Virus record (IMG/VR): IMGVR_UViG_2534682175_000012
Source: a virus
Taxonomy: Duplodnaviria > Heunggongvirae > Uroviricota > Caudoviricetes
Length of the DNA: 5,893 bases
Reading direction: 5' to 3' (one strand)
The position numbers were made by a program, and so were the translations under genes. Below are positions 1,419 to 5,893 of this stretch, one piece after another (position 1 is the stretch's first letter; each line of letters begins with the position of its first letter). The notes beneath the pieces were generated by a model, which was not told where the DNA came from, searched no databases, and saw only the letters and a list, made by a program, of their open reading frames with translations.

Positions 1419-3890
1419 TTAAAAATCAGCCTGACTCGGGATCAGTTTTTGCCAGATAGCTGAAACGTATTTTGCCTGGTAACGAGCGTCATCAAGTGCA
1501 TTATGGCGCTCACCTTCGAATGGGATAGCAGTTCTGGCATCGAAGTCTATGGCTTTCCCCAGCTCAACGATTGTGCGTACATCGCGATCGTTGTAGTAAC
1601 GCCACGGGCAGGGGATCCCCTGCCGCTCGTATGAACGGCGCAAAATAGTGTTGTCGAAGTTGGCTCCATTTCCCCAGACCTGAACAAAAAATTCACCGGA
1701 GTTTTCGTCGATAAATTCCCGCAATTGTAACAGTGCATCATCTAACGGGATTTCATCGGTCATAATGGCAGATTGCGCTTCGCGTGATTGTTTAAGCCAC
1801 CATTTAATGGTGTCCCGATCAATGACTCCGCCAGCAGTTTCCAGATCGATAGTCTTACTAAATTCCGGTCCCATATCTCCGGTTTGCGGATCGAAAAATA
1901 TTGCACCTATTGAGATGATCGGGGCATCAGGATTTTTTCCCATGGTTTCAAGGTCGATCATTAGATGGTCACACGTCCTGCTGGTGGATGTGATTTCGTG
2001 ATGACCGTTCACCTTAATTGGGTGATCTGCCGTCTCGCCAGTTTCATTATCGCTATTGTGATGCTGATTGCCGCCAGTGTTCTCCTTGTGTGGATGTTCA
2101 GCGCCTTCCATTTCCTCCGGATCATCTTCCTGAACTTCAACCTGATACTCTTCATCGAATGTTTCTTGGTATGTTGCGTCGCCCATCACCGCGCCACAAT
2201 CAGGGCAGTTGCCGCCGCCGGTCTGACCGCAAGCGGTGCAGGCTTTTTCCGGTTCCTGTTGCACTACTGGTTCAGGTTGTTTCGTTTCTGGCTCGTTTTG
2301 TTGCGTATTTTGGCTGTTTTGTTCCGCTTTCTGGTCGTTCTGTTCCGTTTCTTGCTGGTTCTGGTTCGCAGAATCGCGGGTCTGGATCCCCTTAACCCAT
2401 TTCGGATCATTCGGGTCGCTAATCCCTTCAACAAATTCACCACGTGATACTGCAAGCAGTTCATCGGCGTCAGGCTGGCTGATATTGGCTGCCTGCATAA
2501 TTTTGTTTACTTCGTCAGCGGTAACTTTTACCGGTTCTGGCTGTGCGGTCGTGTCAGATGCACCAGTATTTTGTTGTGAACCTGAGTATGTACTGTTTTT
2601 GCGGGCGAAATATTCTTCTTTCGTGATTTCAGTAGCCCCGGCAGCCAGCGCCTTATCCAGACCAGAAAGTTTGTTTGCGCGACCGTATTTTTCTCCGTCC
2701 TTATCGGCGAAGAGGAAATAGAACGGCCCCTCACGCTCTACAGATGGTTCAGCTTCCGGCGCGGTTTCATTTTTTGGGATATCAGATACCTCAGTTTCCA
2801 CTGCATCAGTTTGTGTTTCTGATGACTGGAGAACATCAACAGTGCTCTGATTTGTTCCTTCATCTTCAAACACGCCCTTTGTAGTCAGGTATTCAGTAAT
2901 GTATTTGTTCAGTGCCACAGGATCTTTGTGAATGTCGATCGGACGCTCACGGACAAGGCCAAAAATAGTTTGGCGGTCGTAGCGAAGGGCATCAGGCTGT
3001 TTGCGCATTGATGCCGAGATACGCTTCCAGTCTTCGCGGTCGTTGTCGATAACTTCATTTTTTGCCCAGCGATGGATGCTGCCGTCAATGTTTCCGGCAT
3101 CCACATCACCAGGCCAGAGAGCGTAGGCCAGTTCGTCATCCAGTGTTTTCCATGTCTGCTTGTATTCGCGATGAATGACTGCAGTGACAGGGGAGATATT
3201 TTCTGCTGAGTTTTCAGTGTGCTGTCGGTTGACTCTGGCGCGGGCGAGATCAACAGCAGACGTGTATTTTCCGGTTTCCTTGCGTTCACCTTCGCGACGT
3301 TTTTTCCAGATGCGCATCTCTGCCTGAATTTCGGGCCATTTAGCTCCAGGCTTACATTTATGCTTAACCCACCCGATGGCATGCAACTTAAGTTCTGGAT
3401 ACATGGCGTTAACTTCTGGCATTTTCATCAACGCTTCAACGATATGTCCGTCGAATGTTGCCATGTCTTCCTGCAACAATTCCTGCGCGCTAATCACCAT
3501 ATCAACGGTGATGTTTTCACATGTGTCGAACTTAACCATGACAGCGTTCTGTACTTCAGGGGCCAGCTTGTCAAAAGTGACGTTCATCGGATCTGATTCA
3601 GTCTCAACCGGGACAAAGGAAGCAGACTCCTCATCCCAGCGGTTTTCCTGCATATATTCAGCATCCCAGGAATCGAGGGCAGGGCGGGGTATACCGGGTT
3701 TATCCTCGCAAACAAGAAATTTATAAGCGCAGTCCTGAGCAGCCGGATAATGCTCCAGGAATTGCCAGTGAAATTTTGCGCGGGCGCGACGTTCATCACC
3801 GGCTTCAATGGCAGTGGCTACAGCGACTGCACCTTCTTCCTTTATTGCCTGTTCGTCCGGAATGGCGGCGCAAATAAAGACTTTACTCAT
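1419..3890 (-). CDS. Large multidomain prophage protein: N-terminal domain of unknown function, Q/N/E-rich linker, Cys4 zinc ribbon, C-terminal DEDDh (DnaQ/SbcB-like) 3'-5' exonuclease domain
   Basis: Uninterrupted 823-codon ORF, ATG at 3890-3888 with GAGG about 10 nt upstream. C-terminal motifs seen in the translation: Exo I MIDLET (D646, E648; nt about 1947-1955), Exo II GNGANFD (D746; nt 1653-1655), Exo III RHNALDDARY (H796, D801; nt 1488-1505). Cys4 cluster CTACGQTGGGNCPDCG (res 551-566; nt 2193-2240). Low-complexity NQNQQETEQNDQKAEQNSQNTQQNEPETKQPEP (res 507-548). His-rich stretch at res 598-631. Sits directly upstream of xis, where lambdoid phages keep recombination/exonuclease genes. 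A relationship to RecE-like 'exodeoxyribonuclease VIII' proteins is suspected from memory only. Confidence 0.85.
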   Translation of the reverse strand: MSKVFICAAIPDEQAIKEEGAVAVATAIEAGDERRARAKFHWQFLEHYPAAQDCAYKFLVCEDKPGIPRPALDSWDAEYMQENRWDEESASFVPVETESDPMNVTFDKLAPEVQNAVMVKFDTCENITVDMVISAQELLQEDMATFDGHIVEALMKMPEVNAMYPELKLHAIGWVKHKCKPGAKWPEIQAEMRIWKKRREGERKETGKYTSAVDLARARVNRQHTENSAENISPVTAVIHREYKQTWKTLDDELAYALWPGDVDAGNIDGSIHRWAKNEVIDNDREDWKRISASMRKQPDALRYDRQTIFGLVRERPIDIHKDPVALNKYITEYLTTKGVFEDEGTNQSTVDVLQSSETQTDAVETEVSDIPKNETAPEAEPSVEREGPFYFLFADKDGEKYGRANKLSGLDKALAAGATEITKEEYFARKNSTYSGSQQNTGASDTTAQPEPVKVTADEVNKIMQAANISQPDADELLAVSRGEFVEGISDPNDPKWVKGIQTRDSANQNQQETEQNDQKAEQNSQNTQQNEPETKQPEPVVQQEPEKACTACGQTGGGNCPDCGAVMGDATYQETFDEEYQVEVQEDDPEEMEGAEHPHKENTGGNQHHNSDNETGETADHPIKVNGHHEITSTSRTCDHLMIDLETMGKNPDAPIISIGAIFFDPQTGDMGPEFSKTIDLETAGGVIDRDTIKWWLKQSREAQSAIMTDEIPLDDALLQLREFIDENSGEFFVQVWGNGANFDNTILRRSYERQGIPCPWRYYNDRDVRTIVELGKAIDFDARTAIPFEGERHNALDDARYQAKYVSAIWQKLIPSQADF
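2247..2372 (-). repeat. Degenerate short tandem repeats encoding the Q/N/E-rich low-complexity linker of the 823-aa protein
   Basis: The plus strand at 2270-2370 is built from reiterated GTTTTGTT / TTCTGG / GTTCCG blocks (for example ctgttttgttccgctttctgg, then cgttctgttccgtttcttgctgg). Translation is NQNQQETEQNDQKAEQNSQNTQQNEPETKQPEP. Confidence 0.5.
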
Positions 3891-3982
3891 TTTGTTTTAC
3901 CTCATTACAGATTTAAGGGTGAACAAATCCCTGCCATTGCTGGCATATAAGAATGAAAGCGGATGTTTATTACGGAACTGTT

Positions 3983-4174
3983 TTAAAGACCTGCCGGGAT
4001 TTCGTTATTATCCTGGTGAATAACTTTATCGACCGGGTAACAGTTACCGGGAATTTTCTGTTCGGTTGCTGCAGTCATACATTCCTGCATTGTCCTGTGA
4101 ACACTGACTGCAATATCAACTGGCTCTCCGGAAACAAGATAAACTGTCAGAACAAGCGCAAATGCTGAATTCAT
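3983..4174 (-). CDS. Small hypothetical protein (63 aa) with N-terminal signal-peptide/TM-like hydrophobic segment
   Basis: ATG at 4174-4172 overlaps the stop of the upstream ORF in an ATGA arrangement; AAGGA 9 nt upstream. N-terminus MNSAFALVLTVYLVSG is hydrophobic; the rest is polar with two Cys. The ORF-track frame extends to 4228, and an alternative ATG lies at 4183. AT-rich with no recognisable family. Confidence 0.5.
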   Translation of the reverse strand: MNSAFALVLTVYLVSGEPVDIAVSVHRTMQECMTAATEQKIPGNCYPVDKVIHQDNNEIPAGL

Positions 4175-4359
4175 TGTGCACATCCTTTTGGCATCAGACG
4201 TAAACGAGCCAGCATTGAAACAATGCATATTTTATTTAATAGCTCCCGTTCTTGTTTTCTCTTGTTAATGGCATCTTCAGTAAATACTGGGTTACTGATA
4301 GTGACACCAATTTCAAAACAACCTTCAGACGTATTAACGTTTGGTAATAACGTTTTCAT
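4171..4359 (-). CDS. Small hypothetical protein (62 aa)
   Basis: Internal ATG at 4359-4357 of the 97-aa ORF-track frame is preceded by a strong GAGGA about 7 nt upstream. Its stop overlaps the start of the downstream gene (ATGA). Translation MKTLLPNVNTSEGCFEIGVTISNPVFTEDAINKRKQERELLNKICIVSMLARLRLMPKGCAQ. No family recognised. Confidence 0.55.
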   Translation of the reverse strand: MKTLLPNVNTSEGCFEIGVTISNPVFTEDAINKRKQERELLNKICIVSMLARLRLMPKGCAQ

Positions 4360-4376
4360 TATCGCGTCCTCAACAA

Positions 4377-4524
4377 TGAATTTTGTGATGCGGTGCCTGG
4401 TGCCTCCAGGTGACGTTAACCAGTTAACAATTAACGCCGGATACAGAGAACCCACCCATAACACTGTTTTTGGTTTTAACTGTTCCGCGTGCGCTCAGCC
4501 GCATTCACCACATCACAAAATTCA
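4377..4524. promoter_or_regulatory. Repeat-rich intergenic control region bounded by a perfect 14-bp inverted repeat (candidate operator or divergent promoter region)
   Basis: TGAATTTTGTGATG at 4377-4390 and its exact reverse complement CATCACAAAATTCA at 4511-4524. Inside: tandem GGTGCCT x2 (4392-4405), inverted CCTGG/CCAGG (4396-4410), and GTTAACCA-GTTAACAA-TTAAC (4415-4435). The left arm lies 18-31 nt upstream of the 62-aa gene start. Confidence 0.35.
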
Positions 4525-4599
4525 CTTTAAAAAGGGCGGCAGAGCAGTCACGGAGTAAAACTGATACCGCCAAACGTCACCAGAAAATTGATAACAGAG

Positions 4600-4900
4600 G
4601 GCGTTGCAGCGGGGTTGTCACTTAAGCGTATGGTCAACCTGACAACCCGGTGTCCTCAACGGGGAAGGAATAACCCCGCCATACTTACCGCCGCGCCATT
4701 TCGCGGATTGCCACAACCGGAAGCGCACGGTCGACGAAAATTTAACGACAGGCTATCTATGAACCAGCAACCTCGCCGTGCGCTTTCGCGTTATGCTCTG
4801 ACTTTTCAGAGAAATATCCTTTCAGTAAACTGTCAGTACCGGATGCTCACCCGTGTCCGGCGCACGCACTCCACCTCACCCGTGGAGAACTCCTTAAGTA
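4600..4900 (+). ncRNA. GC-rich structured island: candidate structured 5' leader or ncRNA upstream of the 73-aa ORF
   Basis: About 51-58% GC per 100 bp versus about 38% in the flanking small genes. Hairpins identified by hand: 4612-4620/4640-4648 (9 bp), 4660-4664/4674-4678, 4691-4695/4702-4706, 4717-4730/4776-4789 (about 13 bp with one G-U, 45-nt loop), 4839-4843/4856-4860 and 4869-4874/4882-4887. No minus-strand ORF spans the region. Strand is tentative. Confidence 0.3.
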
Positions 4901-4920
4901 CCAACCCTCAGGATGGTGAA

Positions 4921-5142
4921 ATGACTAGTAAAAATGTAAATATCCAGTTTAACCACGATGTTTCTCCTGCCGGACTTGCGGATGAACTCACTGCTATAAA
5001 AACAGCAATTATGCTACTTGTTGCTAAGTTGCCAGCAGCATCACAACCATCAGATATTTGTGACTCATTACGTAAGATGAATTCAACAAAATGCAACGAG
5101 ATGGCATCACTTATTGAAATAGCTATTGATTTTAATGATTAA
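4921..5142 (+). CDS. Small hypothetical protein (73 aa), encoded opposite to the surrounding operon
   Basis: ATG at 4921 with AGGA 7 nt upstream (4910-4913), TAA at 5140-5142. AT-rich with rare codons (ATA, CTA, AGT), typical of acquired cargo. Translation MTSKNVNIQFNHDVSPAGLADELTAIKTAIMLLVAKLPAASQPSDICDSLRKMNSTKCNEMASLIEIAIDFND. The same frame is open upstream to 4588, but that part is R-rich and uses rare Arg codons, so it is treated as leader. Confidence 0.5.
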   Translation: MTSKNVNIQFNHDVSPAGLADELTAIKTAIMLLVAKLPAASQPSDICDSLRKMNSTKCNEMASLIEIAIDFND

Positions 5143-5506
5143 TCGAAATCTCATGGCTAACTGTAACACTCCCGTCTGTGGCGGGGTGCTTTAAATCACA
5201 GGAGTTAACGCTTTTTGTTGCAAAGTAATTTTCAAGGGGGTCTATTCGAATCCCTTTCTTTTTCATTAACAAGCCAAACCCCTTATCAATGATGTCCATT
5301 AGATCCAGGAAGTATTTTTTATGTAAATCCTGGTTATCAGAGAGCTGCTTCTCTTCGTACAGACCGATAAAGGCACGACGCACGTTACCGGATATAGTAT
5401 AGATGGTTTCTTTTTCTACGGTACTCAGGTCAAGAGTCGCCAGTTGGGAACGAACTATATTCGCTGCCATTTCCTGGAATTGCATTGGTAAATCTTTAAA
5501 TTCCAT
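5132..5506 (-). CDS. Hypothetical protein (124 aa)
   Basis: ATG at 5506-5504 with GAGG about 7 nt upstream; lies 22 nt downstream of the 72-aa gene, implying an operon. Its 3' end overlaps the 3' end of the plus-strand 73-aa gene by 11 nt (convergent). No family recognised. Confidence 0.6.
   Translation of the reverse strand: MEFKDLPMQFQEMAANIVRSQLATLDLSTVEKETIYTISGNVRRAFIGLYEEKQLSDNQDLHKKYFLDLMDIIDKGFGLLMKKKGIRIDPLENYFATKSVNSCDLKHPATDGSVTVSHEISINH
5167..5196 (+). terminator. Weak candidate intrinsic terminator for the plus-strand 73-aa gene
   Basis: CCCG(5171-5174)-tctgtgg-CGGG(5182-5185) hairpin followed by tgCTTTaaaT, about 30 nt after the TAA. The stem is short and the T-tract poor, and it sits inside the 3' coding region of the convergent 124-aa ORF. 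Confidence 0.2.
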
Positions 5507-5528
5507 TATTAGCCTCGTTGGTTAGCTA

Positions 5529-5747
5529 TTAACGTGGGTATGTAATCATTCTGGCAATGCTTAATGCCGCTGCTTTTTCCAGCCTGGTGATATCCTGCTC
5601 CAGAGCGGACAGATTTTCAGCCTGCTTAGCCCTGGCTTCATTGGCCCATTTCAGATCCTGCGCTGCATTAATTTTCTGGCGCATCCACTCATAAAGTTCA
5701 TCATCGGTATAGTCTTGTGCGATGATGACGGGTTCTCGTTTCTGCAT
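5529..5747 (-). CDS. Hypothetical small protein (72 aa), predicted helical/coiled-coil
   Basis: ATG at 5747-5745 with GAGGA 6 nt upstream. Charged, heptad-like sequence (ANEARAKQAENLSALEQDITRLEKAAAL). No family recognised. Confidence 0.6.
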   Translation of the reverse strand: MQKREPVIIAQDYTDDELYEWMRQKINAAQDLKWANEARAKQAENLSALEQDITRLEKAAALSIARMITYPR

Positions 5748-5776
5748 ACTGATTCCTCGCGGTGCTGTTTCGCTTA

Positions 5777-5893
5777 TCAGCCGTTAGATTTTGCGGAACT
5801 GGAAAGCGCCTGTTTAAATTCGTTGAAGCTGAGAGCTTCTTCGCCTTCGGCAAGACCTTCGAAGTATTCTTCGTAAGCCTTTTCCATGATTGT
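5777..5893 (-). CDS. Short or 5'-truncated ORF (at least 36 aa, acidic), first visible gene of the right-hand minus-strand operon
   Basis: Not in the ORF track (too short); translated by hand: ATG at 5887-5885, MEKAYEEYFEGLAEGEEALSFNEFKQALSSSAKSNG, tandem stops TGATAA at 5779-5774. The frame stays open to the window edge, so the true start may lie outside. Confidence 0.3.
   Translation of the reverse strand, partial: TIMEKAYEEYFEGLAEGEEALSFNEFKQALSSSAKSNG

Follow-up and report, generated by a model that had tools for sequence, protein, structure and literature searches.

A reversed 73-amino-acid gene occupies the sieB slot in the dicBF-type early-left operon of an Escherichia coli lambdoid prophage

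A 5,893-nucleotide (nt) stretch of viral DNA (Caudoviricetes; IMG/VR record IMGVR_UViG_2534682175_000012), hereafter the window, belongs to an intact-looking lambdoid prophage of Escherichia coli; its segment 3891–5893 covers the promoter-distal half of a dicBF early-left operon of the Qin type. Within this minus-strand operon, one gene of 73 amino acids (aa) runs backwards on the plus strand, in the slot that sieB occupies in phages lambda and P22 and in the Rac prophage. The gene is moron-like: it is protein-coding, it is present in some prophages and absent from others, its orientation and position are conserved, and its family, which is under purifying selection, has no known relative. We put at about one half the probability that this accessory gene is expressed in the lysogen and silenced by antisense transcription of the operon, with an exclusion-type activity as the best guess; its expression timing, antisense control and function are predicted by analogy with P22 sieB and its antisense RNA, sas. 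The original prediction had read the region as an inverted, GC-shifted moron within a phage early operon; its observation is partly confirmed, and its moron interpretation is partly supported. The features on which this account turns are as follows.

4921–5142, plus strand: reversed 73-aa gene (PHROG 7249), supported by the ratio of nonsynonymous to synonymous substitution rates (dN/dS), by a family of proteins of about 73 aa, and by a Shine–Dalgarno (SD) sequence, AGGA, 7 nt before the ATG.
5132–5506, minus strand: 124-aa early gene (PHROG 6937), supported by PHROG matches, 238 homologues and a domain mosaic in the alignment.
4907–5508, no strand: 602-bp AT-rich indel holding the 73-aa and 124-aa genes, absent from phages Tritos and PhiR42_1 (alignment) and from K-12 Qin (gene map).
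About 4891–5131, no strand: indel of about 241 bp holding the 73-aa gene alone, from alignment against the 124-aa-only loci L085, L102 and L126.
4586–4906, minus strand: conserved GC-rich dicF 5' leader (321 nt; GC 0.539), near-invariant in Tritos, PhiR42_1 and the F9792 locus.
4838–4914, no strand: three-hairpin element 5' of the 73-aa gene (hairpins at 4838–4861, 4869–4887 and 4890–4914).
5234–5267, plus strand: terminator-like hairpin with a T-run (pattern scan), 92 nt past the 73-aa stop and inside the 124-aa gene.

The strand switch is confined to the 73-aa open reading frame (ORF), which is a real protein-coding gene. In its own frame, dN/dS against the window copy was 0.085–0.18 for the copies in the F9792 locus (L001), a Salmonella prophage (L010, 73% identical) and a metagenome contig (L012, 63–64% identical), and it was 0.35 between two distant relatives; it exceeded 1 in four of the five other frames and, as one would expect, was 0.28–0.42 in the codon-antisense frame. 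About a dozen more relatives, of 70–107 aa, emerged when 1.84 billion representatives were searched with a profile. The family aligns over its full length with the pattern ..S..GL..EL.AIK.A..L..AK.P....P..I.DSL.......K..ELA.LI, keeps its length at 30–40% identity across three genera, conserves a good SD and is restricted to prophages of Escherichia, Salmonella and Yersinia. No relative of the gene was found among the GTDB species representatives. A scan of genome contigs with a 15-nt query (CCGKGTCCGGCGCAC), too short and too GC-rich for the purpose, gave chance matches in high-GC genomes, with E. albertii alone relevant. The protein is small and acidic and was modelled by AlphaFold as three soluble helices (predicted local distance difference test score, pLDDT, 67.8).

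We then compared the gene neighbourhoods of the family in 13 contexts, namely the window and the F9792 locus, Salmonella phage 118970_sal3 (L007), a Salmonella Cox-type prophage (L010/L011), the short contig L012, and others from lambdoid prophages of Salmonella, Yersinia and E. coli and from metagenome contigs (L042–L049, L256–L263). In all 13, the gene runs opposite to the early-left genes and converges on one of them, the two 3' ends meeting or overlapping by as much as 83 nt. Wherever a repressor gene was recognised, it lies about 0.4–1.1 kb from the 73-aa homologue. Two prophage types carry a second reversed gene directly upstream of the homologue, so the reversed unit can hold two genes:

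480–947 of L260, plus strand: 155-aa protein with a two-span membrane hairpin (PHROG 6315).
2410–2916 of L258, plus strand: 168-aa soluble protein (PHROG 1244).

Position, orientation and 3'-end convergence match those of sieB in Rac, lambda and P22, and the 73-aa gene therefore occupies the sieB slot of all three. In Rac, sieB lies on the plus strand opposite kilR, ydaF and ydaG and overlaps ydaF by 4 nt; in lambda, it lies at 34482–35036 on the plus strand and abuts N; and in P22, where its promoter and RNA start site are annotated, it sits between ral and gene 24. The shared slot lies within the early-left operon, immediately beyond the first early genes on their promoter-distal side; its occupant is reversed, and the 3' end of the occupant meets or overlaps that of an early gene (by 11 nt in the window). 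The occupants themselves differ: the 73-aa protein is unrelated to SieB, which has 162–192 aa, and no esc-like second start is evident inside the 73-aa gene.

Alignment of related prophages, which the original prediction had suggested as a check, showed that the segment varies while int, xis and the exonuclease gene are kept. Against Tritos and PhiR42_1, the 602-bp indel is one clean insertion, with ydfC on one side and the dicF leader on the other. It consists of nested accessory pieces: a co-directional 124-aa gene and, within its indel, a reversed single-gene unit of about 241 bp. The 124-aa gene, which had been taken as operon backbone, is itself accessory, being present (≥80% covered) in 717 of 5426 complete E. 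coli genomes and lying inside the 602-bp indel; the 73-aa gene is present in 88 of them. Of 80 IMG/VR loci encoding a full-length 124-aa protein, 26 carry the 73-aa gene in full, 2 retain just a 34-aa remnant of it and 52 show no match to it. The same junction is found empty, with the 124-aa gene only, with both genes, or with 124-aa relatives paired with other reversed genes; relatives of 109, 133 and 135 aa, which resemble the 124-aa protein only over its N-terminal ~55 residues, converge on unrelated reversed genes of 91, 92 and 77 aa. We scored the DNA that follows the window-type leader in a sample of 119 viral contigs, counting as empty-type those without an SD-preceded plus-strand ORF of ≥40 aa:

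Empty-type: 78 of 119 contigs.
77-aa gene: 12 of 119 contigs.
92-aa gene: 10 of 119 contigs.
73-aa family: 8 of 119 contigs.
91-aa gene: 7 of 119 contigs.
Another 69-aa gene: 1 of 119 contigs.
Contig end too near to score: 3 of 119 contigs.

With five families counted behind this leader, the leader-adjacent site is a hotspot of alternative small cargo genes, as originally guessed although with other units and borders, and in the literature searched we found no description of the slot as such. Morons in the sense of Hendrix and Juhala, for example HK97 gp15 and lambda bor and lom, are likewise single genes that some phages carry and others lack at one fixed position flanked by conserved neighbours, and the base composition deviates here as well; the classic definition adds a promoter and terminator of their own, whereas in the window we see weak pattern matches for these. 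None of the alternative cargo proteins matched PADLOC-DB 2.0 at E ≤ 0.01, apart from a weak HamA1 match at the cut-off by the unrelated 155-aa protein of L260.

For distant 73-aa homologues, the sieB parallel extends to the DNA ahead of the reversed gene. A motif, GCCKG-N6-10-CCAC-NN-CMGGC-N2-4-GTGGT, lies upstream of distant 73-aa homologues and also precedes sieB in lambda (34396–34428; L384 1197–1229), P22 (L385 912–945) and Rac (L009, about 4066–4105). In P22, the antisense RNA sas has been sequenced and is 127 nt long (PMC13397905, Table 2); on that sequence, the reverse complement of the motif falls in the 3' part of sas, and the 5' part is complementary to the SD and AUG of sieB. The sas RNA switches sieB translation in P22 (Ranade & Poteete 1993, as cited in PMC12197685 and PMC7067206).

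When IMG/VR was scanned with this exact pattern, at least 120 matches came up; of the 120 listed (L264–L383), 119 are clearly related copies and one is a chance match in a 71%-GC contig. Among the 119 copies listed, the K and M positions covary without exception (T-A in 110, G-C in 9). In 31 distinct copies, 94.6% of the cells pair and the observed covariation score was reached by no shuffle; since the search pattern had fixed most of the stem positions, unbiased evidence comes only from the sixth pair and the K/M pair. The 2.5 kb upstream of the motif is dominated by the opposite strand in 74 of the 120 listed loci. In the 91 listed loci where a first ORF past the motif could be called, these ORFs fall into at least 37 unrelated families, including SieB and the 73-aa family, and most encode small proteins of 40–190 aa; ten of the families, scanned against PHROG, gave either groups without an assigned function or no family match. 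The sequence TAnnnT follows GTGG in 68 of the 120 listed copies and reads as an extended −10 (TGnTAnnnT). Rfam holds no family for the motif. As a separate observation, phage PPompW_132418 (L004) has a strong sas-type motif (49.7 bits) at 3053–3090 on the plus strand, flanked by ydfC and by a gene that the annotation places on the minus strand (3105–3461). This points either to another slot for reversed cargo within that operon or to a strand error in the annotation of the gene.

The window has a leader of another type. A covariance model built from the 31 distinct motif copies scored 51.8 bits in P22, 51.6 in lambda and 35.1 in Rac, and 10.9 bits (E = 0.88) in the L012 relative. The two leader types share cargo: the 77-aa gene stands behind the window-type leader in PPompW_132418 and behind a sas-type motif in L327, and the 73-aa family is likewise found behind both. 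Hairpin 1 of the window is also similar to the motif's G/C-class stem (GCCGGA...TCCGGCGC, as found in L315). We treat the two leaders as functionally analogous, and not as demonstrated homologues.

The three-hairpin element of the window-type leader is kept not only ahead of the reversed genes of 73, 77, 91 and 92 aa but also in the relatives from Salmonella and L012, and its third hairpin (4890–4914) pairs CTCC with the SD AGGA. Comparative support for the hairpins is thin: in an alignment of 10 sequences, 91.9% of the cells were paired, and the two compensatory pairs, both in hairpin 2, came from one sequence. Hairpins 1 and 2 persist at empty sites (Tritos and K-12), being part of the dicF leader. 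The direct repeat CTCACCCGTG occupies the loops of these two hairpins, at 4846–4855 and 4875–4884 on the plus strand, 29 nt apart; 0.24 copies are expected by chance, and two copies were reached in 6 of 200 shuffles. The repeat could be a protein-binding site.

Because the 73-aa gene is reversed inside the operon, the operon transcript must run antisense through it, and it necessarily covers the SD and AUG, as the operon-strand sas RNA covers those of sieB in P22. We propose that the moron product is made from its own start signals in the lysogen, while the early-left operon is repressed. When the operon fires, upon induction or upon infection by a phage of the same immunity, an antisense transcript would run across the 73-aa gene and its ribosome-binding region; convergent transcription, together with the antisense RNA over the SD and AUG, would then turn the gene off, as sas does to sieB. 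Such silencing would spare the phage's own lytic growth from an activity of the lysogenic state that is probably of the exclusion type, the precedent being the exclusion, or the aborted infection, of other phages. The concept is known from BstA, which with its aba element in prophage BTP1 forms a prophage defence with built-in self-immunity. The likeness is one of concept only, that is, a function of the lysogen neutralised by the prophage during its own lytic growth; the two share neither sequence nor structure, and self-immunity here would be antisense or transcriptional.

Several results weigh against this proposal. The covariance model found no match in the window leader at E ≤ 10, so we rejected that leader as a member of the sas-motif family, and a sas-like RNA at the window locus therefore rests on analogy with P22. 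The three-hairpin element folds no better than shuffled sequences (z = 0.2). A scan for sigma-70 consensus promoters found none for the 73-aa gene in the window or in three relatives; a weak TAAACT lies at 4826–4831, 6 nt before hairpin 1, and L012 has TAAAAT at the same spacing. The terminator at 5234–5267 is a weak, pattern-level candidate; a similar site follows the 73-aa homologue in L042, and none follows it in L046 or L010. The protein has neither the SieB Pfam domain (PF14163), which Rac SieB matches at 1.5e-31, nor, by inspection of its sequence, a membrane segment or long hydrophobic stretch, and on this basis it is not a SieB homologue. Both the 73-aa and 124-aa proteins went without a match in Pfam and NCBIfam and, at E ≤ 1, in PADLOC-DB 2.0; in PHROGs they match just families without an assigned function (7249 and 6937, respectively). 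A profile search of the PDB gave no credible match, and Foldseek gave none at E ≤ 0.001 against the PDB and BFVD, although searches of this kind reveal little about small helical bundles.

The 73-aa and 124-aa genes could instead form a two-component cassette, for example toxin and antitoxin or effector and self-immunity, with one component made in the lysogen and the other from the induced early operon. The two ORFs converge, and their 3' ends overlap by exactly 11 nt (5132–5142), as the original prediction had noted and the ORF coordinates bear out. The overlap, TTAATCATTAA, is near-palindromic and therefore supplies a TAA stop in both directions. Both genes were inserted together relative to Tritos, PhiR42_1 and K-12, the terminator-like site that would serve the 73-aa gene falls within the 124-aa coding sequence, and the last ~15 codons of the latter differ between loci with and without the 73-aa gene. 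The 124-aa protein has a conserved N-terminal domain of about 55 aa (MEFKDLP...GLYEEK) and a variable C-terminal part, and was modelled by AlphaFold as a three-helix core with a disordered tail (pLDDT 62.3); its C-terminal half is weakly similar to the 57–71-aa 'LKHVIALLLEDAKRL' protein that partners distant 73-aa homologues (hhalign probability 54%, E = 1e-4). Against a cassette, the 124-aa gene mostly occurs without the 73-aa gene (717 versus 88 genomes; 52 of 80 viral loci), so co-occurrence is not obligate, and neither protein matches a toxin–antitoxin or defence model. The converging partner is also inconstant: 73-aa homologues converge on the 'LKHVIALLLEDAKRL' protein, on a zf-C4_ClpX protein, on proteins of 86, 90 and 123 aa, and here on the 124-aa protein, and the 'LKHVIALLLEDAKRL' module is in turn partnered with an unrelated 92-aa reversed gene. 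For these reasons, a specific 73/124 pair is disfavoured, and, with the 124-aa gene alone in most loci and 73-aa homologues facing unrelated partners, we rejected it; the broader cassette idea strikes us as unlikely. We also observed that the end of the 124-aa gene, ...ATTAATCATTAA, is retained in loci without the 73-aa gene.

The 73-aa protein might, on the other hand, serve the phage during infection or induction, in anti-defence, host takeover or regulation of the immunity region, and not act in exclusion by the lysogen. It is a small acidic helical protein, a common format of anti-defence and host-takeover proteins; it is encoded in the early region, near the host-directed products dicB, dicF and kil; and no constitutive promoter is recognisable for it. 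Its gene, though, is oriented against the early operon in all 13 contexts, which is the arrangement of sieB, a gene expressed in the lysogen, and co-expression with the early genes is awkward because the gene is always opposite to them. We give this role little credence, as little as we give the cassette.

That the whole block at about 4525–5142, structured island and ORF together, is one inverted and GC-shifted insert, as originally predicted, is highly improbable. An opposite-strand ORF does exist there, with a step in base composition near it, so the inversion stands for the 73-aa ORF (4921–5142); it fails for about 4525–4900, where DicF, on the minus strand, and its leader lie. The leader at 4586–4906 is almost unchanged in Tritos, PhiR42_1 and F9792, with the cargo present or not; on the plus strand, the same DNA lies upstream of the reversed gene. 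The indels in fact run from 4907 to 5508 and from about 4891 to 5131. The direction of the composition shift had been taken the wrong way: GC is 0.539 in the leader and 0.558 in dicF, as against 0.356 in the 73-aa ORF, 0.382 in the ~241-bp unit, 0.403 in the 124-aa ORF, 0.392 in the 602-bp indel and 0.467 in the window as a whole. The GC-rich piece (leader and dicF) is thus backbone, and the variable DNA is AT-rich. The strand of DicF and the alignment-defined borders refute the single insert; what holds of the moron is an oppositely oriented, present-or-absent gene in an early-left operon, with other boundaries, since the island is dicF plus leader on the operon strand.

With regard to the structured stretch itself, both strands fold moderately better than shuffled sequences (z = −2.4 and −2.7), so the folding energy assigns no strand to it. 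With z near −2.5 on both strands of the leader and z = +0.2 for a 95-nt antisense stretch, we dropped the energy-based case for a structured RNA. Rfam scans gave DicF and a sub-threshold STnc100 match alone in the window and nothing at the leader element in six related loci, and we rejected a known riboswitch or other Rfam family for the leader elements.

It is equally improbable that the 73-aa ORF is a chance or decaying frame, without a product, antisense to the untranslated region of the operon: database clusters are few (7 at E ≤ 1e-3), gene callers often extend the ORF spuriously upstream (P0147 and P0148) and truncated remnants exist (L066; P0126 and P0127), but the strong purifying selection in its own frame, the length kept across three genera and the conserved SD described above all speak for a gene. 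Public records often place long spurious plus-strand ORFs across the dicF leader or annotate reversed cargo genes as reaching into it, giving 134-, 145-, 157- and 214-aa versions of the 73- and 91-aa genes; cases are L003 4334–4669 and 4726–5034 (plus strand), P0147 and P0148, and the reversed ORFs in L054 and L055.

Returning to the lysogen-expressed, antisense-silenced gene that we favour, a wider reading is possible, although we hold it tentatively and with less confidence: the sas-type and window-type slots together may be a general, hypervariable cargo position of lambdoid phages for antisense-silenced lysogen effectors, of which the 73-aa gene would be a new one. Dozens of unrelated tiny proteins would each be made in the lysogen and shut off by early-left antisense RNA during phage growth; the 73-aa family would be a new small effector of exclusion or abortive infection with built-in self-immunity at the RNA level, and the slot would form a reservoir of them that no catalogue yet covers.

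Little of the segment is new, as the dicBF operon has been characterised. Worth keeping are the 73-aa family, always backwards in the sieB position, and the different small genes that different prophages carry at the same site; the most interesting by-product is the sas-type element ahead of dozens of small reversed genes. If these genes do encode exclusion or defence factors silenced by antisense RNA on induction, the slot would be cheap to mine for single-protein anti-phage functions, and the sieB/sas mechanism described for P22 in 1993 would extend from one gene to a class. The closest copies of the segment are in strains of enterotoxigenic E. coli (ETEC), e.g., O169:H41, the serotype of strain F9792, and O6:H16. 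Because the cassette lies inside the precursor transcript of DicF and dicB, it could alter the output of these division inhibitors in pathogenic E. coli, including ETEC.

The operon itself was identified by the DicF match in Rfam, the DicB and DUF1482 matches in Pfam, the RefSeq annotation and synteny with K-12 Qin. On the minus strand, the order is ydfB, ydfC, the 124-aa gene, the long leader, DicF, dicB and ydfD, followed by the exonuclease, xis and int; the long ORFs are all on this strand, with the integrase at 1–1119, the excisionase at 1088–1366, the 823-aa exonuclease at 1419–3890 and the small genes beyond. Every gene from ydfB to int other than the 73-aa gene is on the minus strand, in agreement with the co-directionality originally described. 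The remaining features of the segment are as follows.

3983–4174, minus strand: ydfD (63 aa, DUF1482, 'lysis protein YdfD'), Pfam PF07358 at E = 2.8e-25 and named ydfD in F9792 and K-12 Qin.
4171–4359, minus strand: dicB (62 aa, cell-division inhibitor), Pfam PF05358 DicB at E = 1.9e-40 over the full length, with synteny.
4327–4536, minus strand: STnc100-like stretch in the dicF–dicB spacer, RF02076 at 38.1 bits, below the gathering score of 47 (E = 9e-6).
4534–4585, minus strand: DicF small RNA, RF00039 at 76.7 bits (gathering score 48), E = 3.3e-16, full model 1–52.
5529–5747, minus strand: ydfC (72 aa), from syntenic annotation in F9792, K-12 and phages.
5777–5893, minus strand: ydfB, cut by the window end with its true start beyond 5893, from the syntenic 129-bp ydfB in F9792 and K-12; the alignment passes the end.

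Segment 3891–5893 is matched in 4762 of the 5426 complete E. coli genomes. RefSeq annotates the matching stretch of the F9792 locus (L001) as ydfD, dicB, two hypothetical proteins, ydfC and ydfB. Operons of this type are controlled by an upstream repressor pair of the DicA/DicC kind, and this locus, 95% identical, has a helix-turn-helix repressor and a Cro/CI gene about 0.35 kb past ydfA, in a region outside the window. The K-12 Qin order is ydfA-ydfB-ydfC-dicF-dicB-ydfD-ydfE; the synteny of dicB, ydfD, ydfC and ydfB is also shared with phage Tritos and F9792, and DicF is annotated at the matching position in Tritos and K-12. The window shares with the dicBF region of K-12 Qin its gene order and strand, DicF, DicB, YdfD, YdfC and YdfB, as well as the long untranslated leader. 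K-12 Qin and phages Tritos and PhiR42_1 differ in lacking the 602-bp piece with the 124-aa and 73-aa genes, and in K-12 Qin the exonuclease homologue ydfE is a pseudogene interrupted by IS2, whereas here the operon runs into an intact 823-aa exonuclease, xis and int. DicB has been reported to have an anti-phage role.

The neighbours of the reversed gene had been regarded as a compact uncharacterised set, which does not hold: the dicBF operon, with the named components dicF, dicB and ydfD and a 'long untranslated region', has already been published (PMC5069750). As for the idea that the whole segment is variable cargo, dicF, dicB, ydfD and ydfC proved to be invariant core with a housekeeping function; the 73-aa and 124-aa genes did not.

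Some further observations concern these operon genes. Relatives of the 823-aa exonuclease (1419–3890, minus strand) are annotated with YdfE_N, YdfE_C and Rv2179c-like domains, and the middle of the protein is a long low-complexity stretch, acidic and rich in Q, E and T; the protein also contains a CxxC...CxxC motif (CTACGQTGGGNCPDCG). A second STnc100-like match (44.6 bits against the gathering score of 47) lies at 4667–4889 on the minus strand of L046, adjoining a distant 73-aa homologue in another prophage type, and it and the stretch in the window may be diverged copies of a prophage small RNA or leader. In several ETEC genomes (e.g., O6:H16), an IS1 insertion splits the segment, with ydfD annotated there merely as a DUF1482 protein; the dicBF operon is thus under disruption in some lineages. 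Finally, the 254-kb jumbo-phage record of Aeromonas phage AP1 (MT713136.1) contains at 249906–250152 an unannotated stretch of 247 bp that is 98% identical to window 4350–4596 and covers most of the dicB–dicF spacer and dicF, which looks like contamination or a very recent transfer.

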